From assembly GCA_041640655.1 (NCBI GenBank), contig JBEPZV010000010.1:1-64000 (forward strand): a stretch of 64,000 nucleotides of DNA, in the 5' to 3' direction. Positions 43,643 through 61,346 of this stretch are shown here, one piece after another. The notes beneath the pieces were generated by a model, which did not search any database, was not told where the DNA came from, and worked only from the letters and a program-made list of their open reading frames with translations. The position numbers were made by a program, and so were the translations under genes. This DNA is from a bacterium. Lineage in GTDB: Bacteria; Acidobacteriota; Blastocatellia; HR10. Each line of letters begins with the position of its first letter. Position 1 is the stretch's first letter.

Positions 43643-45793
43643 TCAGGAGCGGCCCTCGATGATGAAGACGGGCTCCGTCGGCAGGAGCGCGCACAAGATG
43701 CGCTCGGCCCATCGTTGCGCTTGCTCGGGAGAGGCGGCTTGCGAGAGATCGAGGCAGTGCGTCGTGGAGAGAAGGTAGCGACGCGTCGAAGGCACGAAGG
43801 CGCGCTCGCGATCGAGGAGGCGAGCGAGTGTCGCCGAGGCCTCTGCGGCTGTCGTCGTGGTGATCATCGCCTCTTCCAGAGCGAAGACGACATTCCCCTC
43901 TTTATCGCAGACGCACAGTTTGGGTCGCGCTGTCTGGCGCTGGCGGAAGAAACGGCGACGCGAGGTGCGGCCTTGGTAAATTTCAAATCCTTCGGTCTCG
44001 GCCACGAGTTCGACGTGATCTTCCGGGATGGCCATCATGGTTGCCGCGAGGGCCACGCGTTGATCCGGCGTCACGCGCAGAGACGAACGTTCGGGATGCG
44101 GGCTCAGGCGTCCCGTCACCGTGAGGCGCGCGCGCCGCGTCGCCGAATCCCGGTCAATGGTCGTCCGGAGCGAAGCTCGCTCCGCCCCCCATTCGAGCAG
44201 CGTTCGCTCGGCTTCCTGGCGCCAGCGCTCCAGCTCTTTCTCCTCCGAGTGCGCGAGCGAACGCTCGATCGTCTCTCGAAGATCTGCCGCGGCGGCGCCG
44301 AGAGCACTCATCATCTCTCCCTGTTCGAGAAGGATGGATCGCAACCCGAGCCGTTGCGCCAGCAGCGGCAGCAAGAGCGGAGCCGATGTCCCCATTCCGA
44401 CCAGTGGCGGAGCGGGATCCCGGAAATGTCGGCGCAGCGCTTTTTGGACCAGATCGGCGAGCGCGCCGATCGCGCGCTCCACGATCACTTCGGCCGCGTC
44501 TTCGGGCGCGAGCGCGAATCGCGCGGCCAGCCGCTCAAGGGCCTTCCGAGCGATCGCCCTTCGCTCCTCATCGGCCTCGTCGAGCCCCAGGCACAGCGCA
44601 GCATCGCCGACCGTGAGCGCGTAACGGTTGCCGTCGGGTGTAGCGATCGCTAGGAATTCTTCGGAAGATCTGGGCGTCGGGTGAAATGCGATCACACGCG
44701 CGCCCTCAAGGGCTTCCCCCGTGGCCTTTTGGGCCGGAGCCATCGCGAGCGTCGAGGCGCTCCAGGGCCCGATGCCCGCGATCATGCCGCGTTGGAACCT
44801 CAGCAGGCTCTCGCTCCCCACAGCGAGCGAGAAGATCTCGAGAGCTCGAAGCGGCACCCGCATATCCGCCAGTTCCGCTTCCCCCTCGAAAGCGCGCCCC
44901 TGCTGAATCATCGCGACATGCGAGACGCTTCGTCCTATCCGAATGAGGATACCCTCCTGAAGCCGGGCGCGCTGAAGCGCCCCGAGAATTCCGGCCGCGG
45001 GGCCGGAGAAGAGGCCGAGCAAAGGGCGGTGGAGCAGATGTCTCCACGGCGCGAGACCGCCATCATTGCGGACGATGAAGAGCGGTGCCCGGAGGCCGGC
45101 CTGTCGCGCACATTCCTGGATCACTCCGCCGACCGCGAAGACATCAGCCAGGGCAGTCACCAGGCAGAGGGCCGCCCGGAGGCGAAACTTTGGGTCCGAC
45201 GCCGCGGAGAACTCGGAGACGCTGCACATTGGCACGCCCAATCGCGAGCGAGATTCCAGGAGCGTCCATTCGGCATGAGCGTGGGAGCGTTCGCGCGTGG
45301 GGACGAGGACGAAACCTTCAGCGCCGCGCGCGCGCAGGGCGAGAAGGGGATCGAACCAGTCCGCCGCGCTCTCCAGATCAGAGGAGCGAAGGAGAAGGCG
45401 CGCGATGGGAACCGTATGGCCAGAGAGGAGGGGAATCGCTTCGAGCTCGGTTTCGGTGAGAGAAGGGGGCGAAGCGCGCTCCTTCGGATCGAGCATGATG
45501 AGGCCGACAAGGGACGGGCGAGCCTGCAGGGCAGCGCTCACGCCCAGGGTCGTGCTGAAGGAGAGCGCCAGAACGCGATCGGGCGGAAATCCCCCCCTGG
45601 CCAGAAGAGTCCACAGGGCACGACGAATCTCCTCGGCGCGATCCCTCCACGCGATCGGTGATGCCGCTCCATCGCGCGAGCGCTCGCCGTGAACGGCTAG
45701 AACGTCAAGCGTTTCATGGTCGAGCGCCGCCACATACGTGCCCTCCTCCTCGACAGCGATCCCGATGCGGATCCATGCTTGCTCGTTCGCCAT
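43643..45793 (-). CDS. Hydantoinase/oxoprolinase A family-like protein with degenerate ATP-binding motifs
   Basis: STT, DGG, SGPAAG, GP.SA, SALGAA landmarks; both DxGGT motifs are altered. Confidence 0.6.
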   Translation of the reverse strand: MANEQAWIRIGIAVEEEGTYVAALDHETLDVLAVHGERSRDGAASPIAWRDRAEEIRRALWTLLARGGFPPDRVLALSFSTTLGVSAALQARPSLVGLIMLDPKERASPPSLTETELEAIPLLSGHTVPIARLLLRSSDLESAADWFDPLLALRARGAEGFVLVPTRERSHAHAEWTLLESRSRLGVPMCSVSEFSAASDPKFRLRAALCLVTALADVFAVGGVIQECARQAGLRAPLFIVRNDGGLAPWRHLLHRPLLGLFSGPAAGILGALQRARLQEGILIRIGRSVSHVAMIQQGRAFEGEAELADMRVPLRALEIFSLAVGSESLLRFQRGMIAGIGPWSASTLAMAPAQKATGEALEGARVIAFHPTPRSSEEFLAIATPDGNRYALTVGDAALCLGLDEADEERRAIARKALERLAARFALAPEDAAEVIVERAIGALADLVQKALRRHFRDPAPPLVGMGTSAPLLLPLLAQRLGLRSILLEQGEMMSALGAAAADLRETIERSLAHSEEKELERWRQEAERTLLEWGAERASLRTTIDRDSATRRARLTVTGRLSPHPERSSLRVTPDQRVALAATMMAIPEDHVELVAETEGFEIYQGRTSRRRFFRQRQTARPKLCVCDKEGNVVFALEEAMITTTTAAEASATLARLLDRERAFVPSTRRYLLSTTHCLDLSQAASPEQAQRWAERILCALLPTEPVFIIEGRS

Positions 45794-45854
45794 CGTTCAT
45801 CTTCGTGGGGCGCGCTCTTGGCGACCTCTGGCGGTCAGCGCGCCTCTTCCATGT

Positions 45855-46433
45855 TCACGCTGAGGCGGAGCCGGAGGATGACGGCGTTGGTCCGAAGCTC
45901 GCTTCCTCTTCCGCGGCATGGGCCTCGCGGTTGATCACGCGCGCCAGGACGAAGAGAAGGTCGGAGAGGCGGTTCAGATAAACGAGGACATGCTCGTTGA
46001 TCGGTTCTTCGGTCGCCAGTCGCACGACGCGTCGCTCCGCTCGGCGCGCGACGGTCCGGGCCAGGTGCAGCAAGGCGCCCGGCACACTCCCTCCCGGCAG
46101 GACGAATTCGCGTAAGGGGGGGAGCGTTTGGTTCCACTCATCTATCGCTCGTTCCAGGCGCGCGACATGTTCCGGCTCGATGCGCGGCGCTTTGATCTCG
46201 AGCGGACTGGCCAGATCAGCGCCGACCGTGAACAGCTCGTTCTGAATCTCGGCCAGGAGCCGATTCACCGGGGAGTCCTTCAAGTGCGCGCGTACAAGGC
46301 CAAGGAGCGAGTTCAGTTCATCCACTTCCCCATAGGCTTCAACGCGCGGAGAGTCTTTCCGCACGCGCCGACCTCCGATGAGCGATGTCTCCCCCTGATC
46401 GCCCGTTCGCGTGTAAACCTTCGTGATGCGCAT
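45855..46433 (-). CDS. ATP:cob(I)alamin adenosyltransferase, PduO type
   Basis: [45 protein letters not shown]. Confidence 0.94.
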
Positions 46434-46444
46434 ATGACGCCCCC

Positions 46445-46474
46445 ATTATAGCCGCGATGCCCAGGAGGCAGCAA
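46445..46474 (-). promoter_or_regulatory. Sigma70 promoter for the PduO gene (TTGCTG-18-TATAAT), near-leaderless transcript
   Basis: Perfect -10 at 46450-46445, 11 nt from the ATG at 46433. Confidence 0.55.
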
Positions 46475-46507
46475 TTCCGGCGACAATCGCTCATGGGGAG
46501 GCACTGC

Positions 46508-46537
46508 TTGACAGAAGGAGGGGCGGACAAGTACAAT
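46508..46537 (+). promoter_or_regulatory. Sigma70 promoter of the metal efflux cluster (TTGACA-18-TACAAT)
   Basis: -35 at 46508-46513, -10 at 46532-46537; ATG at 46548 lies 10 nt downstream (near-leaderless). Confidence 0.7.
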
Positions 46538-46547
46538 CTCTGCCGTA

Positions 46548-46976
46548 ATGAAGCGAGCATCTCTGGCCATTCTCCTCCTTCTGGCCGTCGGCGGCGTGGG
46601 GCGGACCGCGGTGCTCTGTGCGCGTTCTCTCTGTTCGGTTCCCCTCTCGATATGTTGTTGTCATCGTATGGAGCGTGGCGCATCGGTGCGCCTCGCGCGT
46701 CCGATGACCTGTGAGGGCACTCAAGGAATGGCGGGAGATCTCCACTGGGGGGCACCGGCGCGCGCGTGCTGCACCTTCTCTTCTGCTCCGACCCGGCCTC
46801 TCGGCGAAGCGGCTTCTCGGTCTCTGGCTGCGCATCTGTGTGAGGGGGAGATGGTGCGCTCTGCAGAGTTGGGGGCATGTGGGAGTTCTCCTCCGGCCAT
46901 GGCCCGCGCTTCATTGCCGGATGCCTCTGCGGGACTGCTCCCGATCTATCTCCGCCTCGCTGTCTTGCGCATTTAG
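46548..46976 (+). CDS. Cys-rich exported leader protein (upstream ORF) of the Cu/Ag efflux operon
   Basis: Signal-like N-terminus, 10 Cys including CCCH and CC, C-terminal SPP...PIYLRLAVLRI; immediately behind a strong promoter. Confidence 0.65.
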   Translation: MKRASLAILLLLAVGGVGRTAVLCARSLCSVPLSICCCHRMERGASVRLARPMTCEGTQGMAGDLHWGAPARACCTFSSAPTRPLGEAASRSLAAHLCEGEMVRSAELGACGSSPPAMARASLPDASAGLLPIYLRLAVLRI

Positions 46977-47136
46977 CCTCTTTTCTCTGGTCCCATCCTG
47001 GATTGAGCCGCGGGGATCACTCCCTGTCTGAGGAGATTCCTCTGAGGACGAGCGGGATCTCGTGCGGCATTCACGCGATGATGTGTGTGAGCGCATGATT
47101 CCCGAAGACGCGGAGGTGGGCCATGAGAAGAGGCTA
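46974..47136 (+). promoter_or_regulatory. Long-range RNA helix pairing the leader ORF stop region with the SD/ATG of the TolC-like gene
   Basis: 46974-46997 (TAGCCTCTTTTCTCTGGTCCCATC) is complementary to 47115-47136 (GGTGGGCCATGAGAAGAGGCTA), about 21 bp including G-U pairs. Confidence 0.55.
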
Positions 47137-48625
47137 CAGGATACGAATCTCGCACCCATTCGGTGGCTTGTGGCGAAGACATGGGGCCGCGAATGCATCG
47201 GTGAAGCGATGGTGGGGGATAGCGACGCTCGTGGGGCTTTTCGCGAACGCCTTCACCGCGCCTGCTCTGGGGCAACAGATTGCTCACCGCGCTGGCGTCG
47301 CGGAGAGAACGCTCTCCTGGAGAGGGTTCCCGGACTCGGCGGAGATCTCTCCCGATCGGTCTTCGGCCGATCTGGAGGCGTGGGAGGCGACGCGCTCCGT
47401 TGATGCGGACGTCACGCAAAAAGCGAACGTGCCGGGATCACCCTCGGTCGTCACTTTGGACGAGCTGATCGCTGAGGCCATGAGGAGGAATCCGGAGATC
47501 CTGGCCGCGCGACGGCAATACGATATGAAGCGCGCGCGTGTTCCGCAGATGACAGCTCCGCCCGAGCCGATGCTCTCAGTAGCTGCGATGGGGAATCTGC
47601 TCCCGTTCTCCGTCCAGGTGGGAGACCCCTCCAGTGCGCGCATCGTGAGCTTCTCACAAGATATCCCATTCCCCGGGAAACTCGCCCTTCAGGGGAAGGC
47701 CGCGGCCATGGAGGCGGAGGCTGAACGGTGGGCGTATGAGCGGACGTGGCGGACAGTGATCGCCGATCTGAAAGTGGCCTACTACGACCTCTACTTCGTG
47801 GAGAAATCCACCGAGATCATCACCCGGGTTAAGGGCCTCCTTGAGCAACTGCTCAAGATCGCCGAGGCTCGGTATCAGGTGGGGAAGGCGGCGCAGCAGG
47901 ATGTCCTCAAAGCCCAGACGGAGATCTCGATCCTCATCGAGAGGTTGACTCTGTTAGAGCAACAACGCGCCCGCCTGGTCGCGCGCATTAATGCCCTCCT
48001 CGATCGTCCTCCGGAGGCCCCTCTTGGGCGGACCGTGGAGGTGAAGAAGGGCGCGTTACCCTATTCGCTTCAGGAGCTGTATGGCATGGCCGCAGCCCAG
48101 TATCCCGACCTCAAGCGGCAAGAACGATACATTGATCGCGCGCAGTATGCCGTCGCCCTGGCGAGGAAGGCGTCCTACCCGGATTTCGCCCTCGGGTTCC
48201 AATATCTCCAGCGTCCCCGGATGCCGGAGATGTGGGGGATCAGTTTCAGCGTGAAGCTCCCGCTCTACTTCTGGAAGCGGCAGCGGCCGGCGCTCGAGGA
48301 GGCGGCCGCCGAGCTCGCTCAAGCTCGACATGAGCACGAGGGGATTCGGGCACAGCTCTTCTTCCAGGTCAAGGATCACTATCTGATAGCGACGACAGCG
48401 GAACGACTCCTTCGGCTCTACGAGGAAGGGATCATCCCTCAAGCGACGTTGACCCTGGAGTCTTCGGTCGCCTCGTATCAGGTCGGGGCTGTGGACTTTT
48501 TGACGCTCCTCACCAATGCGATCACCGTGTTGACCTATGAGCTGAACTATTACGAGCAATTGGTCACCTTTCAGAAGGCGTTGGCGCAATTGGAACCGCT
48601 CATCGCGCGGGAATTGACGCGGTGA
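47123..48625 (+). CDS. TolC/CusC-like outer-membrane efflux protein
   Basis: SD GGAGG at 47112-47116; NPEI, SQDIPFPGKL, YQVG..DFL OEP repeats; precedes MFP and RND genes (alternative GTG start at 47201). Confidence 0.88.
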   Translation: MRRGYRIRISHPFGGLWRRHGAANASVKRWWGIATLVGLFANAFTAPALGQQIAHRAGVAERTLSWRGFPDSAEISPDRSSADLEAWEATRSVDADVTQKANVPGSPSVVTLDELIAEAMRRNPEILAARRQYDMKRARVPQMTAPPEPMLSVAAMGNLLPFSVQVGDPSSARIVSFSQDIPFPGKLALQGKAAAMEAEAERWAYERTWRTVIADLKVAYYDLYFVEKSTEIITRVKGLLEQLLKIAEARYQVGKAAQQDVLKAQTEISILIERLTLLEQQRARLVARINALLDRPPEAPLGRTVEVKKGALPYSLQELYGMAAAQYPDLKRQERYIDRAQYAVALARKASYPDFALGFQYLQRPRMPEMWGISFSVKLPLYFWKRQRPALEEAAAELAQARHEHEGIRAQLFFQVKDHYLIATTAERLLRLYEEGIIPQATLTLESSVASYQVGAVDFLTLLTNAITVLTYELNYYEQLVTFQKALAQLEPLIARELTR

Positions 48626-48682
48626 GCCCTCCTGGGGGAGGCCTTCTCGGGAGGCAGACACGTGACGTGGAGGGAGAGCGCG

Positions 48683-50188
48683 ATGGAAACAGAGAGAACG
48701 AAGGATCACGTCTCAAGCACAGAGGACCCGTTGGACGTGCTGCGAGAAGCTCATGTCCCACCGGAGGAAGGTCATGGTGAGGCCTCGCTTCGGGGGACCA
48801 CTTCGAGGTCCTCGGCTGGAGCGCCCGAGCGCAGACGCGCTCGAGCGCGCCTTCTCTGGATCGGTCTGCTCATCATCCTGGTGCTCATCGGGATCGGTCT
48901 TGGATCTCGATACTACCAGCAACGACGGGCCGTGGAGTCCGGAGGGAGAGTGGGCCTGGATGGACAGGCGCAGTCGGGGAAGGCCGTCTACTACTGTCCG
49001 ATGCATCCGGAATACACTTCGGAGAAGCCCGGAGAGTGCCCCGTGTGTGGGATGACGCTCGTGAAACGAGAGGAACCTGGTCATCCACCGGCGCATGAGG
49101 AGGCGCTGCCTCCGGGGACGGTGCGGATCAGTCCCGTCAAGCAACAGCTCATCGGTGTCACCTATGGGGAGGTGGCTTTTGGGCCGGTCGTTCACACGAT
49201 CCGAGCCGTGGGCAAGATCACGTATGATGAGACGAAGATCGCGCGCCTTCATGCCAAGATCGAGGGGTGGATCGAAAAGGTCCATGTGGATTATGTGGGG
49301 AAGTTCGTTCGGAAGGGGCAACCGCTTCTGGAGATCTACAGTCCGGAGCTGGTCGCCACGCAGCAGGAGCTGTTGCTGGCGCTTCGGGCGAAGGAATCGT
49401 TGGGCCGCAGTCCGTATCGAGAGATCGCTTCAGGGGCGCATTCGCTCTACGAGGCGAGTCGGAAGCGATTGGAGCTTTGGGATATTCCGGAGGAGGAGAT
49501 CCGACGGATTCAACGTCAGGGTGAGCCCCTGCGCACGCTCACGCTCTATGCACCGGTGACCGGATTCGTCCTGGCGCGGAATGCCTTCGAGCGGCAACGG
49601 GTGACGCCGGAGACCGAGCTATACACCATCGCCGATCTCTCGACCGTCTGGGTTCTGGTGGACATTTACGAATATGAGGCGCCGCTTGTCCGGATCGGAC
49701 AGAAGGCGACGATGACGCTCCCATATTTCCCGGGGAAGGTCTTTCACGGTCGCGTCGCCTATATCTATCCACAGCTGGACCCAATGACGCGCACGCTGAA
49801 GGTTCGCTTGGAGTTCCCCAATCCCGGACTCATGTTGAAGCCGGACATGTACGCCAATGTCGAGTTGCGAATCGAGTACGGTCGGCGGTTGTCCGTCCCG
49901 GAGGAGGCTGTCCTCGATTCCGGCACGGAGCAGATCGTCTTTGTCGCTCACGAAGGCGGGTATTTCGAGCCGCGTCGCGTTCGCGTGGGGCCGAAGGTGG
50001 CGAACCGGTATATCATCCTCGAGGGCTTGAAGGCCGGGGAGCGAATCGTCACCTCGGGGAACTTTCTCATTGATTCTGAGAGCCGTCTCCAGTCAGCCTT
50101 GCAGGGCATGAGGCAGGGTGGTCATGGAGGGGCGTCGGCTCCCGGTCCATCTCCGGCACCGGGGGGACATTCGGGACATCGCCCGTGA
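48683..50188 (+). CDS. cusB: CusB-like efflux periplasmic adaptor with heavy-metal-binding domain
   Basis: TM anchor; YYCPMHP..CPVCGM; GWIEK, YSPELV, LKPDMY, FLIDSES; His-containing tail. Confidence 0.88.
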   Translation: METERTKDHVSSTEDPLDVLREAHVPPEEGHGEASLRGTTSRSSAGAPERRRARARLLWIGLLIILVLIGIGLGSRYYQQRRAVESGGRVGLDGQAQSGKAVYYCPMHPEYTSEKPGECPVCGMTLVKREEPGHPPAHEEALPPGTVRISPVKQQLIGVTYGEVAFGPVVHTIRAVGKITYDETKIARLHAKIEGWIEKVHVDYVGKFVRKGQPLLEIYSPELVATQQELLLALRAKESLGRSPYREIASGAHSLYEASRKRLELWDIPEEEIRRIQRQGEPLRTLTLYAPVTGFVLARNAFERQRVTPETELYTIADLSTVWVLVDIYEYEAPLVRIGQKATMTLPYFPGKVFHGRVAYIYPQLDPMTRTLKVRLEFPNPGLMLKPDMYANVELRIEYGRRLSVPEEAVLDSGTEQIVFVAHEGGYFEPRRVRVGPKVANRYIILEGLKAGERIVTSGNFLIDSESRLQSALQGMRQGGHGGASAPGPSPAPGGHSGHRP

Positions 50189-50212: not shown

Positions 50213-53200
50213 ATGATCAATCGCCTCATCGAATATTGCGCGCATCATAAGTTCCTCGTTCTCCTCATAGTTGGCGTGGCCGTCTTGCTCGGTCTCTATG
50301 CGATGAAGAACATCACGCTCGATGCGATCCCGGATCTCTCGGATACGCAGGTGATCATCTACTCGCGGTGGGATCGCAGCCCGGACATCATCGAGGACCA
50401 GGTCACCTATCCGATCATTACAGCGTTGCTCGGGCTGCCTCGGGTGAAGGACATTCGCGGCTTCTCGGACTTCGGCTATTCGTACGTCTACGTCATCTTC
50501 GAGGACGGGACGGACCTCTATTGGGCGCGATCGCGGACGCTGGAATACTTGAGCAGCATCCTCCCGAAGCTTCCGGAGGGCGTGCAGGTGGAGTTGGCCA
50601 AAGATGCGACGGCCGTCGGATGGGTTTTCCAGTACGCTCTGGTGGATACGACGGGGAAGCACAGCCTGGCGCAGCTCCGTTCGATTCAGGACTGGTACCT
50701 TCGGTATGAGCTGCAGGCCGTCCCAGGAGTGGCCGAAGTCGCCCCGGTGGGGGGCTTCGTCCGTCAGTATCAGGTGAACCTCGATCCCAACGCATTGCTC
50801 GCCTACCGGATTCCCCTGGAGCGGGTCGTGGAAGCGATTCGGGAGGGGAACAACGACGTCGGCGGGCGATTGATCGAGTTCTCTGGACGGGAATATATGG
50901 TGCGGGGGCGAGGGTATATCCGTTCCGTGCGCGATGTGGAGAACATCGTCGTGGGGGTGAATCCGGAGACGGGCGCGCCCATCTTGGTGAAGCACGTGGG
51001 AACGGTCGCTCTGGGGCCGGACATCCGGCGAGGCATCGCGGAGCTGGATGGCGAGGGGGAGACTGTCGGGGCCATCGTGATCATGCGCTATGGGGAGAAT
51101 GCGCTCAAGGTGATCGAGCGGGTGAAGGCGCGGCTGGCTGAGATCGAGCGCACGCTGCCCGAAGGGGTGAAGATCGTCACGACCTACGATCGGTCGGACC
51201 TGATCCTCCGCTCCATCGAGACCTTGAAGCGGACGCTCATCGAAGAGCTGACGATCGTGAGCTTGGTCATCCTCATCTTCCTCTGGCACATCCCGAGCGC
51301 CCTCATCCCGATCCTCACGATCCCGACGGCGGTGATCCTCTCGTTCATCCCCATGTACGCGATGAACATCACGGCCAATATCATGTCGTTGGGGGGGATC
51401 GCTATCGCCATCGGCGCCATGGTGGATGCCGCCATCGTCGTCGTCGAACAGACGCACAAGAAGCTCGAGCGGTGGGAAGCGGAGGGGCGGCCGGGAGATT
51501 TCCGGGATGTCGTCATCGCCGCCGTCAAGGAGGTCGGCGGGCCGAGTTTCTTCGCCCTATTGGTGATCGCGGTCTCCTTCATACCCATCTTCGCTCTGGA
51601 GGCCCAGGAGGGACGACTCTTCAAGCCGCTCGCCTTCACGAAGAATTTCTCCATGGCCATCGCGGCCGTCTTGGCCATCACGCTCGATCCGGCCATTCGG
51701 TTGCTCTTCACGCACGCGCGGGAGTTCGATTTCCGTCCCCGCTGGCTCTGTCGGCTGACCAATGCCATCCTCGTGGGGAAGATTCACGACGAAGAGCGGC
51801 ATCCCGTCAGCCGCGCGTTAATGCGGGTGTACGAACCCATCGTTCACTTCGTCCTGCGCCATCCGTATGCGACGATCGCCAGCGCTCTGCTCATCGTGGT
51901 GCTCACTGTCCCGATCTACTTCCGGCTCGGTTCGGAGTTCATGCCTCCTTTGGATGAGGGCGTTCTCCTCTACATGCCGACGACGCTGCCGGGCATCTCG
52001 GTGACCGAAGCCGCGCGGCTGCTTCAGGTTCAGGACAAGATCTTGAAATCGTTCCCCGAGGTGGAGCGCGTCTTCGGCAAAGCGGGGAGGGCGGAGACGG
52101 CTACGGATCCGGCGCCCCTCTCGATGGTGGAGACCGTCGTGGTGCTCAAGCCTCCCGAGCAATGGCCGAAGGTGAAGCGCTGGTATTCCGATTGGGCGCC
52201 GCCGTGGATGCAGAGGGTTCTTCGGCGCATTTGGCCCGATCGTCGGACGACCGAGGAGTTGATCTACGGTCCGGGGGGATTGAACGAAGCTCTGCAGCTG
52301 CCGGGCGTCGTCAATGCCTGGACGATGCCCATCAAGGCGCGTATTGACATGCTCACGACCGGCGTGCGGACGCCCGTGGGCATCAAGATCCTCGGCGATG
52401 ATTTGAACAAGATCCAGGAGATCGGCGAGCACATCGAGCGCGTGCTCCGCGATGTCCCCGGGACGACGAGTGTCTTCGCCGAGCGCACGGCCGGCGGGTA
52501 CTTCCTGGACTTCGCCCTCAAGCGCGAGGAGCTCGCCCGCTACGGTCTCACTATCGGTCAGGCGCAGATGGTCATCCTGTCGGCCATCGGCGGAGAGAAC
52601 ATCACCATGACGGTCGAGGGACGGGAGCGCTACCCGGTCAACGTTCGCTACCTGCGCGACTACCGGAGCACGCTCGATCGGTTGAGCCGCGTCCTCGTCC
52701 CCACGCCCACCGGCGCCCAGATCCCGATCGCCCAGATCGCCGAGATCCGGCTCGCTTACGGTCCCGGGATGATTCGGGACGAGAATGGCCGATTGAGCGG
52801 CTACGTCTACGTGGATGTCTCCGGACGCGATATCGGAGGGTATGTGGAGGAAGCCAAGCGCCTCGTCCGGGAGAAGGTCCCGCTGCCGCCCGGATACACA
52901 TTGGTCTGGAGCGGCCAGTATGAGTACATGCTGCGCGTGAGAGAGCGGTTGGCGATCGTGGTCCCGATCACCCTCTTCATCATCTTCCTGCTGCTGTACG
53001 GCAATACCGGTTCAGCAGCCAAGACGCTCATCATTTTTCTGGCCGTGCCCTTCTCGGCGGTCGGCGCGATCTGGCTGCTCTATCTGCTCGACTACAATCT
53101 GAGCATCGCCGTGTGGGTGGGACTGATCGCCTTATTAGGCGTGGATGCTGAGACGGGCGTGTTCATGCTGCTCTATCTCGATCTGGCCTATCAGGAGATG

Positions 53201-53491
53201 CGTTCAAAGGGCATGATGAAGACGCGGGAGCATCTGCATGAGGCCATCGTGCACGGGGCCGTCAAACGGCTGCGCCCGAAGTTCATGACGGTGGCTACGA
53301 TGTTCATGGGATTGGTCCCCATCATGTGGTCCACCGGTGCTGGGGCGGACGTGATGAAGCGGATCGCAGCACCGATGATCGGCGGCATCTTCACTTCGTT
53401 CCTCATGGAGCTCGTGGTCTATCCGGCCATCTACGATCTGTGGCGCTGGCATTTTCACGTGAAGAAGGAGGCGCGGGCGGCCGGAGCGTGA
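50213..53491 (+). CDS. cusA: CusA/SilA-type Cu(I)/Ag(I) HME-RND efflux pump
   Basis: DAIPDLSDTQVI, EDQVTYP, YWARSR, GSEFMP, PLSMVET, WTMPIK.RIDML (Met triad), R.RPK.MT. Confidence 0.93.
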   Translation: MINRLIEYCAHHKFLVLLIVGVAVLLGLYAMKNITLDAIPDLSDTQVIIYSRWDRSPDIIEDQVTYPIITALLGLPRVKDIRGFSDFGYSYVYVIFEDGTDLYWARSRTLEYLSSILPKLPEGVQVELAKDATAVGWVFQYALVDTTGKHSLAQLRSIQDWYLRYELQAVPGVAEVAPVGGFVRQYQVNLDPNALLAYRIPLERVVEAIREGNNDVGGRLIEFSGREYMVRGRGYIRSVRDVENIVVGVNPETGAPILVKHVGTVALGPDIRRGIAELDGEGETVGAIVIMRYGENALKVIERVKARLAEIERTLPEGVKIVTTYDRSDLILRSIETLKRTLIEELTIVSLVILIFLWHIPSALIPILTIPTAVILSFIPMYAMNITANIMSLGGIAIAIGAMVDAAIVVVEQTHKKLERWEAEGRPGDFRDVVIAAVKEVGGPSFFALLVIAVSFIPIFALEAQEGRLFKPLAFTKNFSMAIAAVLAITLDPAIRLLFTHAREFDFRPRWLCRLTNAILVGKIHDEERHPVSRALMRVYEPIVHFVLRHPYATIASALLIVVLTVPIYFRLGSEFMPPLDEGVLLYMPTTLPGISVTEAARLLQVQDKILKSFPEVERVFGKAGRAETATDPAPLSMVETVVVLKPPEQWPKVKRWYSDWAPPWMQRVLRRIWPDRRTTEELIYGPGGLNEALQLPGVVNAWTMPIKARIDMLTTGVRTPVGIKILGDDLNKIQEIGEHIERVLRDVPGTTSVFAERTAGGYFLDFALKREELARYGLTIGQAQMVILSAIGGENITMTVEGRERYPVNVRYLRDYRSTLDRLSRVLVPTPTGAQIPIAQIAEIRLAYGPGMIRDENGRLSGYVYVDVSGRDIGGYVEEAKRLVREKVPLPPGYTLVWSGQYEYMLRVRERLAIVVPITLFIIFLLLYGNTGSAAKTLIIFLAVPFSAVGAIWLLYLLDYNLSIAVWVGLIALLGVDAETGVFMLLYLDLAYQEMRSKGMMKTREHLHEAIVHGAVKRLRPKFMTVATMFMGLVPIMWSTGAGADVMKRIAAPMIGGIFTSFLMELVVYPAIYDLWRWHFHVKKEARAAGA

Positions 53492-54804
53492 TGAGCGGTA
53501 TGGGGGTCCGACGCGTGGAGGAGGGACTTCGCTTCGGATCGGGCGCGGGGAGCCAAGCGGGGAGATCCGCGTGGTGTGCGCTGCTCCCCTTGGGGATCGG
53601 TGTCATCCTGGGGCCGACGGGCTTGGGATGGCTTCACCCATTTGTTCTGCCGGGGGGATGGGAGGTCGGCGATGGAGGCTGGTCGCGCGCGGTAATCGCG
53701 GGGATAGCGGAATTGGGGTTGGTGCAGATCGTTTTCCTCGCAGGAGCGCGCGACGGACAAGAGTCCTGGAGATGGGGGGCACTCTTGCGTCTGGCCGCGA
53801 GTCGTTTCGCCTTCGGGGCAGGAAGTCTTCTGGTCGTGGCGCTTGCGCTCGGTATCGAAGGCGCGGCGGCCTGCGCCATCGCCGGTGCGCTCTCGACGGC
53901 GAGCTTTGTGCTCTCGCCCTTTAGCTCGGTGGGGGCGAGAAGAGAGGAGCCGAGGGCGGCCGATCCGGCATCCGTGCTGGCCGTTCTCGGAGCGCTTCTG
54001 GTTCTCATCGCCGTGGGATGGGAGTGGACGTCGAGCTCCGGCGCCCATCTGGTTGCAATCGGTGTCGGACTCTACATCGTGAAGACGGGACTGGTGGTCG
54101 GAATCGCTGATCGTATTCTCGCGTGGTACGCGATGCGTGCGGAGAGGTGGGCGAAGCTCGAGCGGAGCGCCGGTGCGGATTCGTCCCCCGGGATCGAACT
54201 TCGCCACCAGACATTTGTGGGCTTCCTCGTTTTGTTCGCGATCTTCTATGGATGGGCGGCCTGGCGGGTCGGGCCTCTCGCGGCGATAGGCGTGGCCTAT
54301 TTGGGAGGAAGGCGGTTTGGCCGTTCGCCCTTCCAGAGCAGAGGCGCGGCGAGCGCTTTTCCCTGGCTGGTCCGACTGCCGGTATGGACGTTCTTTCTGG
54401 CATTGGGGGCGACCCTCGATGCGCGAGCGCTCGGCCAGAGGATCGGGGAATTCCTCGCGCTTCTTGGGGGCGGAGTGATCGGGAGGTCTCTCGGTGCGCT
54501 CGCCATCGCGCGGTGGATGCGATCGAGCGACTCAACGGATGTCCCCTGCGATTCAAAAGGTCGCGCGACGGCCAGAGGTCCCCGCGTGCTCGAAATGCCT
54601 CTGGGAGGGGAGGTCGGCTGGGTCCTGGCGGGATTCGCTTTCTCTCGGGGCATCATCTCACCTGAGTTGCTGTCTGTAGTTCTTGGGATCATTGGCTCGA
54701 CGACGCTCGGCGCCCTCCTCTTCAGGGGAGGGGAAGCCTGGCTGTGGGCGCCCCGGGTGTGCGATGGCGCCACGCCGAATTCTTTAAGAGGAGGGAAGCA
54801 GTGA
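53491..54804 (+). CDS. Divergent cation:proton antiporter (CPA2/KefB)-like membrane protein
   Basis: Polytopic; GVILGPTGLG, ELG..IVFLAG, FF..LG, GEV landmarks; start overlaps the cusA stop (TGATG). Confidence 0.55.
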   Translation: MSGMGVRRVEEGLRFGSGAGSQAGRSAWCALLPLGIGVILGPTGLGWLHPFVLPGGWEVGDGGWSRAVIAGIAELGLVQIVFLAGARDGQESWRWGALLRLAASRFAFGAGSLLVVALALGIEGAAACAIAGALSTASFVLSPFSSVGARREEPRAADPASVLAVLGALLVLIAVGWEWTSSSGAHLVAIGVGLYIVKTGLVVGIADRILAWYAMRAERWAKLERSAGADSSPGIELRHQTFVGFLVLFAIFYGWAAWRVGPLAAIGVAYLGGRRFGRSPFQSRGAASAFPWLVRLPVWTFFLALGATLDARALGQRIGEFLALLGGGVIGRSLGALAIARWMRSSDSTDVPCDSKGRATARGPRVLEMPLGGEVGWVLAGFAFSRGIISPELLSVVLGIIGSTTLGALLFRGGEAWLWAPRVCDGATPNSLRGGKQ

Positions 54805-55517
54805 AGTCCGGGAAAGTGATGGGGGTCTTCTTCATTTCGGTCTTCACAGCGGGGGTCCGAAGCGGCCTCGCTCAGGAGTTCCGCATCCCCGTTCGACACG
54901 ATCACGCTCTGGGGTCTTGTCGGGGCGAGCTGGTGATCACGGGCGATGAGATCGCGTATCAAACGGCGCACCGTCACCATGCGCGCCGATGGCGATTCTC
55001 GGAGATTCGGATGCTCACGGTCGCCTCGCGCACGGAGCTGATCATTCTCACATATGAATCCGGCCGATGGACATTTGGGCGGGATCGTGCCTTCCGATTC
55101 CGGGTTGCGGAAGGAGAGCTCTCGCCGGAGGTGGGGGCGTTTCTCCTCTCGAGGATTGAGCGACCCATGGCGATGGCTCTCGCCGCCCCTTGGCGAGAGC
55201 CTCTGCAGGAGCTCGCCGTGCGCCACCGCCATCGTTTCGGAGGATGCCAGGGGGTGCTTCGCCTTCATCCGGAAGGCGTGGCCTACGTCTCGTCGGACCG
55301 TCCGCGGGATTCCCGCTTTTGGCGGTGGTCGGATATTCAGGGGATCGGTCGGCTCGGCCCTCATCAGTTCGAGGTCACAACGTATGAACCGGAGTTCGGC
55401 GGGCCTACGCGCACCTATGTGTTCGATCTGAAAACGAGCCTGTCGAACGAGGCGTACGATTTCATCTGGGAAAGGGTCTATCGTACGACGCCTCATGCGA
55501 CCGAGGGACTTCGCTGA
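54801..55517 (+). CDS. Exported hypothetical protein with two repeats carrying an HxH..GxCxG motif
   Basis: SD GAGG then GTG; signal peptide; internal duplication. Confidence 0.7.
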   Translation: MKSGKVMGVFFISVFTAGVRSGLAQEFRIPVRHDHALGSCRGELVITGDEIAYQTAHRHHARRWRFSEIRMLTVASRTELIILTYESGRWTFGRDRAFRFRVAEGELSPEVGAFLLSRIERPMAMALAAPWREPLQELAVRHRHRFGGCQGVLRLHPEGVAYVSSDRPRDSRFWRWSDIQGIGRLGPHQFEVTTYEPEFGGPTRTYVFDLKTSLSNEAYDFIWERVYRTTPHATEGLR

Positions 55518-55597
55518 AGGAGTTCCCATGTGGGGCGTTCGGGCGAGCGCCTTCGCCTGAGAGCGAAGGTGAAATCCAGTTGATCTGGAGGAGGGAG

Positions 55598-55978
55598 ATG
55601 AAGACCATCTGGTCGCTTCTCAGCATCGTGTTCATCGTCGGCGTGAGCGTGTGGGCTCAGCACGCGCATCCGTCGGGGACCACTCGCGAGATGACGATCG
55701 TGGGAGAAGTGATTGATCCGGTGTGCTATCTCAGCCACGGGTCCACGGGAAAAGCGCATCGCAAGTGCGCCGAGTATTGCGTGCGGCAGGGGATTCCACT
55801 CGGCATTTTGGAGGAGAAGACGGGGCGGGTGTACCTCTCGCTTCCCGTGGATCATTCCAATCCGAACGCGAAGCTGAAGGATTTCATCGCCGAGAAGGTG
55901 AAAGTGACGGGGACGGTCTACAGTAAGGGCGGGCTCACGGGCATCCACGTGAAGCGCGTCGAGCGGGTTGGGGCATAG
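55598..55978 (+). CDS. Small periplasmic Cys/His protein (OB-fold-like, putative metal chaperone)
   Basis: SD GGAGG; signal peptide ending VWA; GEVIDPVCY..H..H..CAEYC..G motif. Confidence 0.75.
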   Translation: MKTIWSLLSIVFIVGVSVWAQHAHPSGTTREMTIVGEVIDPVCYLSHGSTGKAHRKCAEYCVRQGIPLGILEEKTGRVYLSLPVDHSNPNAKLKDFIAEKVKVTGTVYSKGGLTGIHVKRVERVGA

Positions 55979-56129
55979 GCGCCTCAATTCGCCAAGGGCT
56001 CAGGACGAACACGCCTGGCTGTGGATGGGGTGTCCCACCGAGGGCATCGCGAGGGAGGGGTTTCGTTTTCATCGAGCGTGGGGGACAATATAGTCTTCGC
56101 GCGAAGTCAATCGAATGGGAGGAGGACAT

Positions 56130-58586
56130 ATGCACGACATCAGGGACGCGCGGCCAGGAGCCGGAGCCTCGGTGATGGATCCGGTATGTGGGATGGTGGT
56201 GAGTCCGGAGCGGGCGGCGGGCTCGCTGGAATACGAAGGGCGAACGTACTTCTTCTGCTGCGAACACTGCTTGGAGAAGTTTCGCGCAGAGCCGGGGCGG
56301 TACGCGGGTCGCGCCGAACAATGGCTCACGCTTCGGCGCCTTCGCCGGGAGCCAGAGCCACATCCCGCAGTAGAAGGCGAGTATGCATGTCCTATGCACG
56401 CGGAGGTGCGGCAGGCGCGGCCGGGAACGTGTCCGGAATGTGGGATGGCTTTGGAGCCATTCTCACCCTCGGTGTGGGAGTACACGTGTCCGATGCACCC
56501 GGAGGTGGTGCGACGGGAACCCGGAGCCTGTCCGATCTGTGGGATGGCCTTAGAGCCGAAGCTCGCGCTCGGCCAGGAGCCTCCCCAACCGGAGCTTGTG
56601 GACATGAGCCGCCGATTTTGGCTCAGCTTGGTATTGACAGCACCGATCCTGCTCTTGGCCATGTCCGATCTGATCGGGGGGATCCGCGGCCTGCCGGCCC
56701 GCTGGCTCAACGGGATTCAACTCGTCCTCGCCACGCCGGTCGTCCTCTGGGGGGGATGGCCGTTCTTCCATCGCGCGTGGATGTCGGTGAAGCACCGACG
56801 ACCGAATATGTTCACGTTGATCGCCATGGGCACGGGGGCGGCCTATCTCTACAGCGTGGTCGCGGCGCTCTTTCCCGGCCTTTTCCCATCCTCGTTTCGG
56901 GGCTCACAGGGTGAGGTCGCCGTCTATTTCGAAGCGGCGGCCGTCATCACGACCCTTGTCCTGCTGGGACAAGTGTTAGAATTGCGGGGTCGCCGTCGGA
57001 CGGGTGGCGCGATTCGCGCCTTGCTCGGTTTGACGCCACGGACCGCTCGTGTGGTTCGCGGCGAAGGGGAAGAGGAGGACGTGCTCCTGGAGCGCGTGCG
57101 CGTGGGCGATCGTCTTCGAGTGCGTCCGGGAGAGCGCATCCCCGTGGATGGTGTTGTGCTCGAAGGCACGAGCTTCGTAGATGAGTCCATGGTGACGGGC
57201 GAGCCGATGCCGGTGGAGAAGGGGCCCGGGAGTTGGGTCATCGGAGGGACGGTCAATGGGACGGGCAGCTTCCTGATGCGCGCCGAGCGCGTCGGTCATG
57301 AGATGCTCTTGCAGCAGATCGTGCGCCTGGTGAGCGAGGCGCAGCGCAGTCGGGCGCCGATCCAGCAGTTGGCCGATCGGGTATCGGCTTACTTCGTCCC
57401 CGCGGTCATTCTCGTGGCAGCGATCACGTTCCTGGTCTGGAGCGTCGTGGGTCCGGAGCCGCGTCTGGCGCATGCGCTGGTGAATGCCGTCGCCGTCTTG
57501 ATCATCGCGTGTCCCTGCGCTTTGGGGCTCGCCACGCCGATGGCGATCATGGTGGGGACGGGCCGAGGCGCTCTGGCTGGCGTGCTGGTGCGGAATGCCG
57601 AGGCCCTGGAGCTGTTGGAGAAGGTGGACACGCTCATCCTTGATAAGACGGGTACGCTCACGGAAGGGCGGCCGCACTTGATCTCCATCGTCGCGTTGGC
57701 GGAGTTGACCGAGGCCGAAGTGCTTCGCTCCGCCGCGAGTCTGGAACGTGGGAGTGAGCATCCTGCGGCGCATGCCGTACTGGAGGCTGCCGAACGGAGG
57801 GGGATCGCGCTGGCCGAAGTGCGGGACTTCCGATCGCTCCCGGGGAGGGGAGCGCAAGGGGTGGTTGATGGACATGCGGTGGCCATCGGAAACGAGCGGC
57901 TCATCGAAGAGCTCGGTCTGGAGACCGAGGCCGATATGGTGCGTCCTCAAGTCGAAGCCATGCGACGCCGCGGGCAAACGGTTCTCTTCGTCATCGTGGA
58001 TGGGGAGCTGGTCGGGCTTCTCGGGGTCGCCGATCCCATCAAGGAATCGGCGCGTGAGGCCATCGCGGCGCTGCGTCGGGAGAAGCTGCGCATTGTGATG
58101 GTCACGGGCGATCATCGCCAAACGGCCGAGGCGGTGGCTCGCGAGTTAGGGATTGATGAGGTGATCGCCGAGGTGATGCCCGAGCAGAAGGCCGATGTGG
58201 TGAGGCGTCTGAAGGCCGAAGGTCGCTGCGTGGCGATGGCCGGGGATGGCGTGAATGATGCGCCTGCACTCGCTGAAGCTCATGTGGGCATCGCCATGGG
58301 GACGGGGACAGACGTCGCCATCGAGAGCGCGGCCATTGTGCTTGTGAAGGGGGATGTGCGCGGGATCGTGCGCGCTCGGCGGCTCAGCCGGGCGACGATG
58401 CGGAACATCCGGCAAAATCTCTTCTTCGCCTTTGCGTATAACCTACTCGGCGTGCCTATTGCGGCCGGCATCTTCTATCCGATCTTCGGACTCTCGCTGA
58501 GTCCGATGATCGCAGCGGCGGCGATGACGTTCAGCTCGGTCTCGGTCGTCGCGAATGCTTTGCGTCTGCACCGGCTTGCCCTCTGA
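56130..58586 (+). CDS. copA: Cu(I)-translocating P1B-type ATPase with a YHS domain and two CPMHx heavy-metal-binding domains
   Basis: [57 protein letters not shown]...MxxSS. Confidence 0.95.
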
Positions 58587-59807: not shown

Positions 59808-61346
59808 ATGAGGAGCGACGTGAATCAGGACGTTCAGAAGCTGGCGACGCTGCTCAACATCAGCCAGACACTGGGGACGACGCTCAACCTGCGGCAGGCG
59901 CTGCTGCGGGTGCTGGAGATCTTGGAGGAGAATCACGGCGTGGTCTCCGGTGTGATCGCCCTTTTGGAGGAGAGCGGCGAGGAGGTGGTCATCGAGGTCT
60001 CGGTGGGGCTGACGCGCGAGGCGCAGCAGCGCGGTCGCTACCGGGTGGGTGAGGGGATCATCGGGCGCGTCGTCGAAAGCGGCAAGCCCATCGTCGTCCC
60101 CAAAGCGAGTCAAGAGCCCCTCTTCTTGAATCGCACGGGCGTGCTCCGGGCCTCTCGCGAGGAGCTGACCTTCATCTGCGTGCCCGTCTCCGTGGATCAG
60201 CAGACGATCGGCGCCATGGGGGTGGTGCTCCCCTATCGCCCGGATCGCGACTACGATCAAGCCACGAAGTTCTTCAGCATCGTCGGCTCGATGGTGGCGC
60301 AGGCGGTGAAGGTGAATCAGCTCATCGAGGCTGAGAAGCGTCGCCTGATGGACGAGAACCTCGCCCTGCGCCGAGAGCTGCGGGAGCGCTACGACTTCAG
60401 CAATATCATCGGCACGAGCCGCCCGATGCAGGAAGTCTACGCGCAAGTCGCTCAGGTCGCTCGCACGAACACAACGGTCCTCATTCGTGGGGAGTCGGGA
60501 ACGGGGAAGGAGTTGATCGCGCGCGCGATCCACTACAATTCGCTGCGGGCCGATCAGCCATTCATCAAGGTCAGTTGCGCCGCTCTGCCCGAGAGCCTCA
60601 TCGAGGCCGAGCTGTTCGGATACGAGAAGGGGGCATTCACTGGAGCCTACGCGCGGAAGAAGGGGCGGTTCGAGCTGGCCGATCGGGGGACGCTCTTCCT
60701 GGACGAGGTCGGTGATCTCCCCCTCTCGGTCCAGGTCAAGCTCTTGCGCGTGTTGCAGGAGCGGGAGTTCGAGCGGCTCGGCGGGACCGAGACGATCAAA
60801 GTGGACGTGCGATTGATCGCCGCCACCAATCGCGACCTCGAGCAAGCCATGCGCGAGGGGACATTCCGCGAGGACCTCTATTATCGCCTGAACGTGTTCA
60901 CGATCTTCCTCCCACCGCTTCGGGAGCGGAAATCGGACATCCCGCTTCTGGCCGATCACTTTCTGGAGAAGTACGCCCGCCTGCATGGCAAGGACATCCG
61001 GCGCATTTCGACGCCCGCCATTGATATGCTCATGAGCTACCATTGGCCGGGGAACGTCCGCGAATTGGAGAACTGCATTGAACGCGCCGTGCTCGTCTGC
61101 GAGGGGAGTGTGATTCACAGCCATCACCTGCCCCCCACGCTGCAAACGGCGGAGGCGTCGGGAACCGTCCCTCGCCTCTCCTTGAGCGAAGCTGTGTCCG
61201 CTTATGAGAAGGACTTGATCCTCGATGCCCTGAAGACGGCCCGAGGGAATATCTCGCGCGCCGCGCGCCTGTTGAATACCACGAAGCGCATTCTCGGCTA
61301 TAAGGTCAAGAAGTACGGGATCAATCCCCGCCGGTTCAAAGAGTAG
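59808..61346 (+). CDS. Sigma54-dependent transcriptional activator, GAF-AAA+-Fis HTH (NifA-like)
   Basis: N-terminal [38 protein letters not shown]-terminal HTH. Confidence 0.92.

Follow-up and report, generated by a model that had tools for sequence, protein, structure and literature searches.

The window analyzed here, positions 1 to 64,000 of contig JBEPZV010000010.1 (assembly GCA_041640655.1; Acidobacteriota, Blastocatellia, HR10), has a G+C content of 62.8% and carries genes for a heavy-metal efflux system of the CusCBA type on its forward strand. A 690-bp stretch separates a divergent adenosyltransferase gene on the minus strand from the gene encoding a TolC/CusC-like outer membrane efflux protein (OEP; 47123-48625, plus strand; PF02321, 5.3e-40), and this stretch holds an open reading frame (ORF) at 46548-46976 (plus strand) that closes with TAG at 46974-46976. 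Coding pattern and family membership identify the ORF as a gene for a cysteine-rich protein of 142 amino acids (P0001), hereafter the leader, and it is a candidate cis-acting regulator of the efflux genes that follow it. As originally predicted, the protein has 10 cysteines, including a CCCH at residues 36-39 and a CC at residues 74-75, and its C-terminus reads ...SSPP...LLPIYLRLAVLRI before the stop.

A sigma-70-like promoter lies directly upstream of the leader at 46508-46537 (plus strand), with TTGACA at 46508-46513, an 18-nt spacer, and TACAAT at 46532-46537. It matched 11 of 12 consensus positions in a consensus scan, bearing out the near-consensus promoter that had been claimed, and was the sole promoter-like site in 46200-47400 (shuffle mean 0.1). 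Bacterium HR10 (BEHM01000009.1, locus L001), the sole relative matched among genome contigs and the comparison genome throughout, carries TTGACG and TACACT at the same position. Its locus is collinear with window positions 36536-57002 (20.4 kb) at 93.5% identity. No other start codon in this frame comes between the in-frame stop at 46509-46511 and the leader ATG at 46548, which sits 10 nt 3' of the -10 hexamer and has no Shine-Dalgarno (SD) sequence before it. Describing the ORF as almost leaderless is therefore fair, provided that the promoter at 46508-46537 is the one used.

A conserved leader gene and its protein family

Sequence comparison indicates that the leader ORF is a genuine conserved gene. 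Relative to HR10, it has 40 differences over 429 nt and no indels, distributed 12/4/24 across the three codon positions, a pattern that departs from an even spread (chi-square ~15, p ~5e-4, by our own arithmetic). The 146-nt spacer 3' of the leader has 20 substitutions and six gap positions, and the 114 nt 5' of it have 19 substitutions and one gap; given its substitutions and gaps, the spacer (46986-47122) is taken to be noncoding. The ratio of nonsynonymous to synonymous substitution rates (dN/dS; Nei-Gojobori, window versus HR10) was 0.27 in the leader frame versus 1.07 and 2.79 in the other frames, and was 0.31, 0.27, and 0.20 when the gene was divided into three parts. The synonymous rate was 0.22, and that of the flanking genes was 0.21 to 0.22.

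A profile search of 1.84 billion representatives returned 11 proteins at E ≤ 1e-3, nine of them full-length, having 139 to 152 residues from a conserved MK start and 27 to 58% identity to P0001. A second profile search with the family alignment recovered no further members, and, judged by these searches, the leader belongs to a rare family. No paralogue was detected with the family profile in six frames of the window or of HR10 locus L001, nor did P0001 have a match in a plasmid collection (tblastn). No family member matched Pfam or NCBIfam at E below 0.1, and this includes CusF_Ec (PF11604) and other folded metal-binding domains. DUF2946 (PF11162) was likewise unmatched by hmmscan, with P0001 and P0010 at E ≤ 10 and with all 10 aligned members at E ≤ 1. 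Language-model neighbors of the protein fell into unnamed clusters of Acidobacteriota, Planctomycetota, and Myxococcota, which serve as leads only; the same applies to a single cluster of look-alikes (score 0.92, rank 17), with PF11162 present in 23% of its proteins. In the literature searched, no published description of the family or of its C-terminal motif was found, and the family was not compared with the published list of CutF-like ORFs discussed below.

M1, K2, C24, A25, C29, C36, C37, and C38 are invariant in all 10 aligned sequences (C-x4-C-x6-CCC), while A13, G16, C74, C75, Y134, L135, and R141 are nearly so. The N-terminal module (46548-46661, plus strand, from the family alignment) consists of MKR and hydrophobic residues, together residues 1-18, followed by LCA(R)S.C...CCC (C24, C29, and C36-38). 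The hydrophobic stretch is about 15 residues long after MKR, has a mean Kyte-Doolittle value of 2.77 over residues 6-16, and presumably serves as an export or membrane-anchor signal. The CC pair (C74-C75; 46767-46772, plus strand) occurs in all nine full-length members at a fixed 66 to 70 residues from the C-terminus, even though the intervening stretch is poorly conserved in sequence. Its distance from the CCC is 33 to 35 residues in eight members and 43 in the ninth.

The last residues, YLRLAVLRI directly before the stop (46947-46976, plus strand), form a candidate arrest or termination-pause peptide in the family alignment. All nine full-length members end in YL(R/L/H)xxx(L/F)R(I/L) followed by the stop codon, one with LRL and one with FRI. 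Hence, the conservation of the C-terminal YL...LRI among homologs, which the original prediction proposed as a check, extends to proteins of 27 to 58% identity. The last 12 leader codons differ between the window and HR10 by four synonymous changes and one Leu-to-Phe change, so conservation here acts at the level of the peptide rather than of the RNA. The signal-like N-terminus and the last nine residues are thus the best-conserved parts of the family, joined by a linker of variable sequence and fixed length. AlphaFold2, run with the family alignment, gave a low-confidence model (mean predicted local distance difference test score, pLDDT, 46.6) with a helix at residues 3-13 only.

A helix from the leader stop to the start of the OEP gene

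The start of the OEP gene is best placed at ATG 47123, which has a GGAGG SD (47112-47116, plus strand) at an ideal spacing of 6 nt; both are unchanged in HR10. The other candidate, GTG 47201, begins a typical signal peptide (KRWWGIATLVGLFANAFTAPALG) but lacks an SD, leaving 47123-47200 to encode a basic N-extension of 26 residues. Seven of these 26 residues differ from HR10 (dN/dS 0.25, on only 14 changes), and relatives at 72 to 78% identity carry N-extensions of other sequence and length, one of which also begins MRR. Because the GGAGG is conserved at 6 nt and relatives also carry N-extensions, we regard ATG 47123 as the likelier start, though the extension is poorly conserved.

Folding places a long-range helix between this start and the end of the leader. 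Its 5' arm (46974-46985, plus strand; TAGCCTCTTTTC) begins on the leader stop codon, and its 3' arm (47125-47136, plus strand; GAGAAGAGGCTA) comprises the G of the ATG together with codons 2-5, AGA AGA GGC TAC. The two arms form 12 contiguous base pairs, one of them G-U, just as had been predicted from the leader stop onward, and they appear in the minimum-energy folds of both 46900-47200 and 46930-47170. In the window fold, a second helix pairs 47109-47123, including the SD and AUG, with 46988-46999; the SD has a probability of being unpaired, P(unpaired), of 0.06 and the AUG one of 0.34, compared with 0.22 and 0.66 in HR10.

The 12-bp helix is also present in the minimum-energy fold of HR10, and 12 of 12 pairs are kept in the two-sequence consensus fold; the arms differ from HR10 by two one-sided changes that still pair (U-G to C-G and U-A to U-G). 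According to the consensus fold, the spacer (46986-47122, plus strand) is structured, with nested hairpins holding both arms together. The consensus of window and HR10 had 63 pairs, none broken and one compensatory, and folding of this kind favors structures that both sequences can form.

Comparable helices with a loop of 20 to 300 nt number about 15 distinct cases in the 64 kb (24 overlapping matches), so a helix near some gene start is not rare. We estimate the chance of arms falling exactly on an upstream stop and the next start at ~1e-4 per gene and ~0.01 for the window. It is accordingly the placement of the helix on the stop codon and the next start, and not the helix alone, that is unlikely by chance. 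AGA accounts for 2.6% of 1,629 Arg codons in 34 window genes, and the presence of two such rare codons in the 3' arm suggests selection on the nucleotides themselves.

To model a ribosome at the end of the leader, the P site was placed at the last 21 positions in turn, a footprint of 32 nt was blocked each time, and pairing probabilities were computed; start-site accessibility was taken as the mean over -13 to +13 around ATG 47123. Accessibility in the window stayed near 0.06 until the last four P-site positions, which gave 0.06, 0.15, 0.35, and 0.35; a value of 0.35 thus required the P site to be on one of the final two codons. A blip to 0.13 also occurred earlier, at a single position four codons short of the last. 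These results support the view that a ribosome on the last leader codons must unwind the 12-bp helix occluding codons 1-5 of the OEP gene, here termed cusC.

The efflux operon and its surroundings

The efflux locus is as originally described, with the genes for OEP, adaptor, and pump all on the strand of the leader. Downstream of cusC lies a gene for a CusB-like membrane fusion protein with a heavy-metal-binding domain (48662-50188, plus strand; HlyD_D23, PF16576, 1.6e-83; HMBD, 4.9e-15), whose best curated match was CusB at a score under the curated cut-off. It is followed by a gene for a CusA/CzcA-family heavy-metal resistance-nodulation-division pump (50213-53491, plus strand; TIGR00914, 1,095 bits against a cut-off of 701). 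The closest solved structures to the pump are those of Escherichia coli CusA (E = 0), and in the alignment the methionines of the pump segments LLYMP, APLSMVET, and RIDMLTTG fall opposite methionines of CusA. We take the latter to be M573, M623, and M672, which form the Cu(I)/Ag(I) site of CusA. A CusA/CzcA-family pump, an HlyD/CusB adaptor, and an OEP encoded in a single operon make up a CusCBA-type system.

A gene for a Cu-type P1B ATPase with YHS and HMBD domains (56115-58586, plus strand) lies 2.6 kb beyond the pump gene. The N-terminus of the ATPase is unusual, having one YHS domain and then two HMBD-type CxxC...C motifs, without classical HMA domains. Directly 5' of it is a 132-amino acid ORF (55580-55978, plus strand) with a signal-like N-terminus, a coding-like G+C content at third codon positions (GC3) of 0.81, and no Pfam or NCBIfam match, the product of which may be a periplasmic accessory of the ATPase. 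No Pfam-recognizable gene lies in the ~2 kb that separate cusA from the copper ATPase region (53492-55579). Two long ORFs here, 53326-54804 (plus strand) and 54297-55529 (minus strand), have flat G+C by codon position, and an ORF at 54744-55517 (257 amino acids) has coding-like GC3 and no family match.

On the other side of the leader, the divergent gene (45855-46433, minus strand; PF01923) encodes a PduO-type cobalamin adenosyltransferase. A perfect TATAAT is found on the minus strand 12 to 17 nt 5' of its ATG (region 46434-46455). This gene may also be expressed from a very short 5' leader, a hint that the source organism often uses short 5' leaders or none.

A Pfam scan of 44 ORFs in 38-64 kb, which took in all ORFs of at least 60 amino acids in 53.2-56.4 kb and around the leader, detected no MerR/CueR, CsoR, ArsR, CopY, or two-component domain. 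This agrees with the earlier statement that the cluster has no CueR, CsoR, or CusRS gene. The nearest regulator-like gene, and the only one close to the metal cluster, encodes a GAF/sigma-54 activator (59808-61346, plus strand), 1.2 kb past the ATPase gene and after an HU gene and clpP. No riboswitch was found in an Rfam scan of 45500-48000 at E ≤ 1, in which the lone match lay elsewhere and was at chance level (18 bits versus a gathering score of 38.3). No dyad operator was found between or around the promoter hexamers, except for one inverted repeat of 10 to 12 nt that runs into the ORF. This 12-nt repeat, 46512-46523 and 46572-46583 (CAGAAGGAGGGG and CTCCTCCTTCTG, one G-U), pairs the -35/spacer region with leader codons 9-12 (LLLL) and is retained in HR10, where one A-to-G change yields a G-U pair. 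The repeat would be present in RNA only if transcription also begins 5' of the mapped promoter.

A candidate nascent-chain regulator of efflux

Known nascent-chain sensors share the plan seen in the leader: a localization signal comes first, then a cysteine motif, then a linker whose length is fixed (modeled here with low confidence), and last a conserved extreme C-terminus. With no better than even confidence, we favor a reading in which the leader is a cis-acting, exported, cysteine-rich leader peptide that makes cusC translation depend on ribosomes arriving at its conserved C-terminus and stop, where they may pause. The leader-cusC-cusB-cusA operon would be transcribed from the near-consensus promoter as a nearly leaderless mRNA with the leader ORF as first gene, and the leader would act as a nascent-chain regulator of the CutF/CruR/CopL kind. 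Its C-terminal motif would occupy the ribosomal tunnel at the stop while the cysteine motifs, 66 to 105 residues away, would already be outside the membrane, and binding of Cu(I)/Ag(I) to these exported cysteines could lengthen or shorten the stay of the ribosome at the ORF end. Any ribosome translating the last leader codons would have to unwind the conserved 12-bp helix that pairs the stop region with the first cusC codons, so that initiation at cusC would depend both on translation of the leader and on how long termination takes. In this scheme we infer that the protein is exported, that it binds metal, that ribosomes pause at the stop codon, and in which direction regulation runs.

Several observations weigh against this reading. 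Some concern the RNA. The helix had been said to bury the ATG and part of the SD, and both elements are paired in the window fold; however, the second helix, which covers the SD, is lost in HR10, where GGTCCCATCC is replaced by GATTCTGT with a 4-nt deletion. The helix conservation that the original prediction called for is therefore confirmed for the 12-bp helix but not for the SD helix, and it rests on two sequences that are 93.5% identical, giving little statistical power. Taken as a whole, the 301-nt fold is of unexceptional stability (z = -1.62). Folding with and without a ribosome footprint, also proposed at the outset, opens the start region in the window (0.06 to 0.35) but barely moves it in HR10 (0.23 to 0.25). 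Moreover, the blocked ribosome leaves the SD more paired, from 0.06 to 0.02 in the window and from 0.22 to 0.01 in HR10, because CUAUCUCCGC at 46946-46955 can pair with GCGGAGGUGG at 47110-47119. This anti-SD stretch (CTATCTCCGC; 46946-46955, plus strand) lies in codons 133-136 and is predicted to pair in both genomes when a ribosome covers the stop region. Equilibrium folding thus lends no support to the proposal that a paused ribosome would expose the SD, which is instead predicted to re-pair. One pair of this alternative helix, C46955:G47110, is U:A in HR10; the compensatory change is suggestive and weak alone, as we estimate that chance would produce one in about a quarter of comparisons like this.

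Other observations that count against the reading concern the gene and its family. G+C by codon position is flat in the leader (0.67/0.63/0.64 versus ~0.65/0.45/0.75 in neighboring genes). A close allele, P0008, known from a single Logan contig, is frameshifted after about residue 90 and continues in the +1 frame, reflecting either an assembly error or a broken or dispensable copy. No member of the family has RAPP, and PP occurs within the last 15 residues in one of the nine full-length members, which is not P0001; the earlier description of the C-terminus as not of the RAPP type therefore stands, the family ending instead in YL...LRI. DNA and gene context were compared for the window and HR10, and the distant members P0010-P0018 entered the comparison as proteins only. 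Given its 142 amino acids and a dN/dS of 0.27 throughout, the leader could equally encode a working periplasmic or membrane protein.

Among known systems, the closest parallel is CutF of Rhodobacter capsulatus, in which Cu-dependent stalling is reported to melt a stem-loop over the cutO ribosome-binding site (10.1101/2022.11.11.516240; 10.1101/2025.02.05.636593). Ozturk et al. list 5,334 CutF-like exported Cys/His-rich upstream ORFs, for which the four filters were a length below 150 amino acids, presence of a signal peptide, PP among the final 15 residues, and a neighboring gene on the same strand; their commonest 3' neighbor is an OEP gene (CusC/CzcC/SilC), and Pseudomonadota and Bacteroidota dominate the list (10.1101/2022.11.11.516240). 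The leader, at 142 amino acids and 146 nt from an OEP gene on the same strand, falls within the size and neighbor limits. Like CutF, it has fewer than 150 amino acids, a cysteine motif, and a conserved C-terminal motif, and it opens a copper operon whose genes share its strand. Its hydrophobic N-terminus is signal-like and may be cleaved or act as an anchor. RNA structure that may shield the start of the following gene is predicted as well: the 12-bp helix over codons 1-5 occurs in both genomes, but the SD, with the values of 0.06 (window) and 0.22 (HR10) given above, lies under a second helix in the window only. Unlike CutF, it lacks a proline-rich (PP/PPP) C-terminus, having YL(R/L/H)xxx(L/F)R(I/L) before the stop, carries C-x4-C-x6-CCC plus CC in place of CxxxC, has no DUF2946 match, and finds its language-model neighbors in clusters of Acidobacteriota and Planctomycetota. 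The RNA also differs: in place of a local stem-loop, a long-range helix joins the stop codon to codons 1-5 across a 146-nt spacer, whereas most CutF-like spacers are shorter than 100 nt.

CruR of Bordetella pertussis (Bp2923, DUF2946) is described as having CXXC and RAPP motifs at fixed spacing and acting through Rho (PMC9426467). By that account, CruR (~145 amino acids) and the leader are both poorly structured upstream ORFs of exported type that head a copper-related operon, both have conserved cysteine and C-terminal motifs at a fixed spacing (66 to 70 residues in the leader family, 45 in CruR), and both have a bubble of C over G at the 3' end of the ORF (PMC9426467). In contrast to CruR, the leader has neither CXXC nor RAPP. 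CruR represses an uptake receptor when copper is present, through Rho-dependent termination, whereas the candidate target of the leader is an efflux pump with a helix at its start site (PMC9426467). Since they lack DUF2946, CXXC/CxxxC, and RAPP, and PP occurs in only one of nine members, the leader family lies outside both named groups. As for the novelty of the control concept, exported cysteine-rich upstream ORFs before CusC-type genes are already in print, but a leader family without PP/RAPP and DUF2946 is probably new to it.

Fujiwara et al. defined arrest upstream ORFs as small and unannotated, with an N-terminal signal or transmembrane segment, a conserved C-terminus, and a spacer of more than 30 amino acids, and showed motifs that arrest with a stop codon in the A site (PMC10987492). 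All four features are found in the leader. As with those peptides, its motif lies at the extreme C-terminus before the stop and is preceded by an N-terminal localization signal and a spacer of more than 30 amino acids. The differences are that the motif sequence is another one, that the target is cusC rather than sec or yidC, and that the leader is known from its sequence only. The classical case of translational coupling by long-range RNA pairing is phage MS2, between coat and replicase. Like MS2-type coupling, the arrangement here requires upstream translation to open a helix occluding a downstream start; unlike it, the leader is built like an exported sensor and contributes its own stop codon to the first base pairs of that helix.

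It is possible, if doubtful, that the leader is instead a trans-acting envelope protein, a membrane-anchored or periplasmic Cu/Ag-binding pump accessory with a CusF- or CzcI-like role, and that the helix reflects ordinary coupling or is incidental. Purifying selection over the full length, as seen in each of the three parts, would fit such a protein, as would its seven invariant or nearly invariant cysteines, which would suit thiolate metal binding; 142 amino acids is also long for a leader, and the in silico switch is weak in HR10. Set against these, the mean pLDDT of 46.6 predicts no folded domain, neither CusF nor another Pfam family is matched, and conserved ends joined by a variable linker of fixed length are typical of nascent-chain sensors and not of chaperones. 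The leader stop codon itself also provides the first base pairs of the helix.

CruR-like transcriptional control appears improbable. A ribosome at the leader end would mask a Rho loading site at 46880-47017 (plus strand), its release would permit Rho termination before cusC, and the helix would be secondary. A composition bubble of C over G, with C minus G up to +0.17 in 78-nt windows, does span the leader 3' end and the beginning of the spacer, as is described for cruR (PMC9426467), and no intrinsic terminator was found in 46200-47400. However, the bubble is short (~140 nt), strongly pyrimidine-rich over only 25 nt, and for the most part base-paired in the predicted fold; the spacer that follows is structured and rich in G, which is unfavorable for Rho, and the leader has no RAPP motif. 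Least of all does the leader appear to be an open frame arisen by chance in intergenic DNA of 63% G+C, with the helix a chance inverted repeat, a reading that the flat G+C by codon position, the 16 ORFs of at least 25 amino acids overlapping 46434-47200, the ~15 comparable helices, and the missing Pfam or NCBIfam match might have favored, but one ruled out, as far as sequence comparison can do so, by the 12/4/24 pattern with no indel across 429 nt, a dN/dS of 0.27 in the leader frame only, and full-length homologs to 27% identity that share start, cysteines, length, and end.

For annotation, a 690-bp "intergenic" stretch of flat G+C before a cus operon contains a real gene. Returning to the leader as a cis-acting nascent-chain regulator, a bolder and rather unlikely extension is that the YL(R/L/H)xxx(L/F)R(I/L)-stop family is an undescribed class of termination-stage arrest peptides, in which the CCC/CC thiolates of a chain exported during translation would bind Cu(I)/Ag(I) outside the membrane and the resulting dwell time on the stop codon would switch CusCBA on through the helix, with no protein regulator. 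If the favored reading is right, the leader would add a proline-free arrest or pause motif ending at the stop codon to the nascent-chain metal sensors, would constitute a long-range (146-nt) version of the RNA switch, and would extend such control beyond Pseudomonadota and Bacteroidota, home of nearly all known examples. Published screens require a PP or RAPP-like motif and so would miss families of this kind; the class may therefore be broader than the catalogs suggest.

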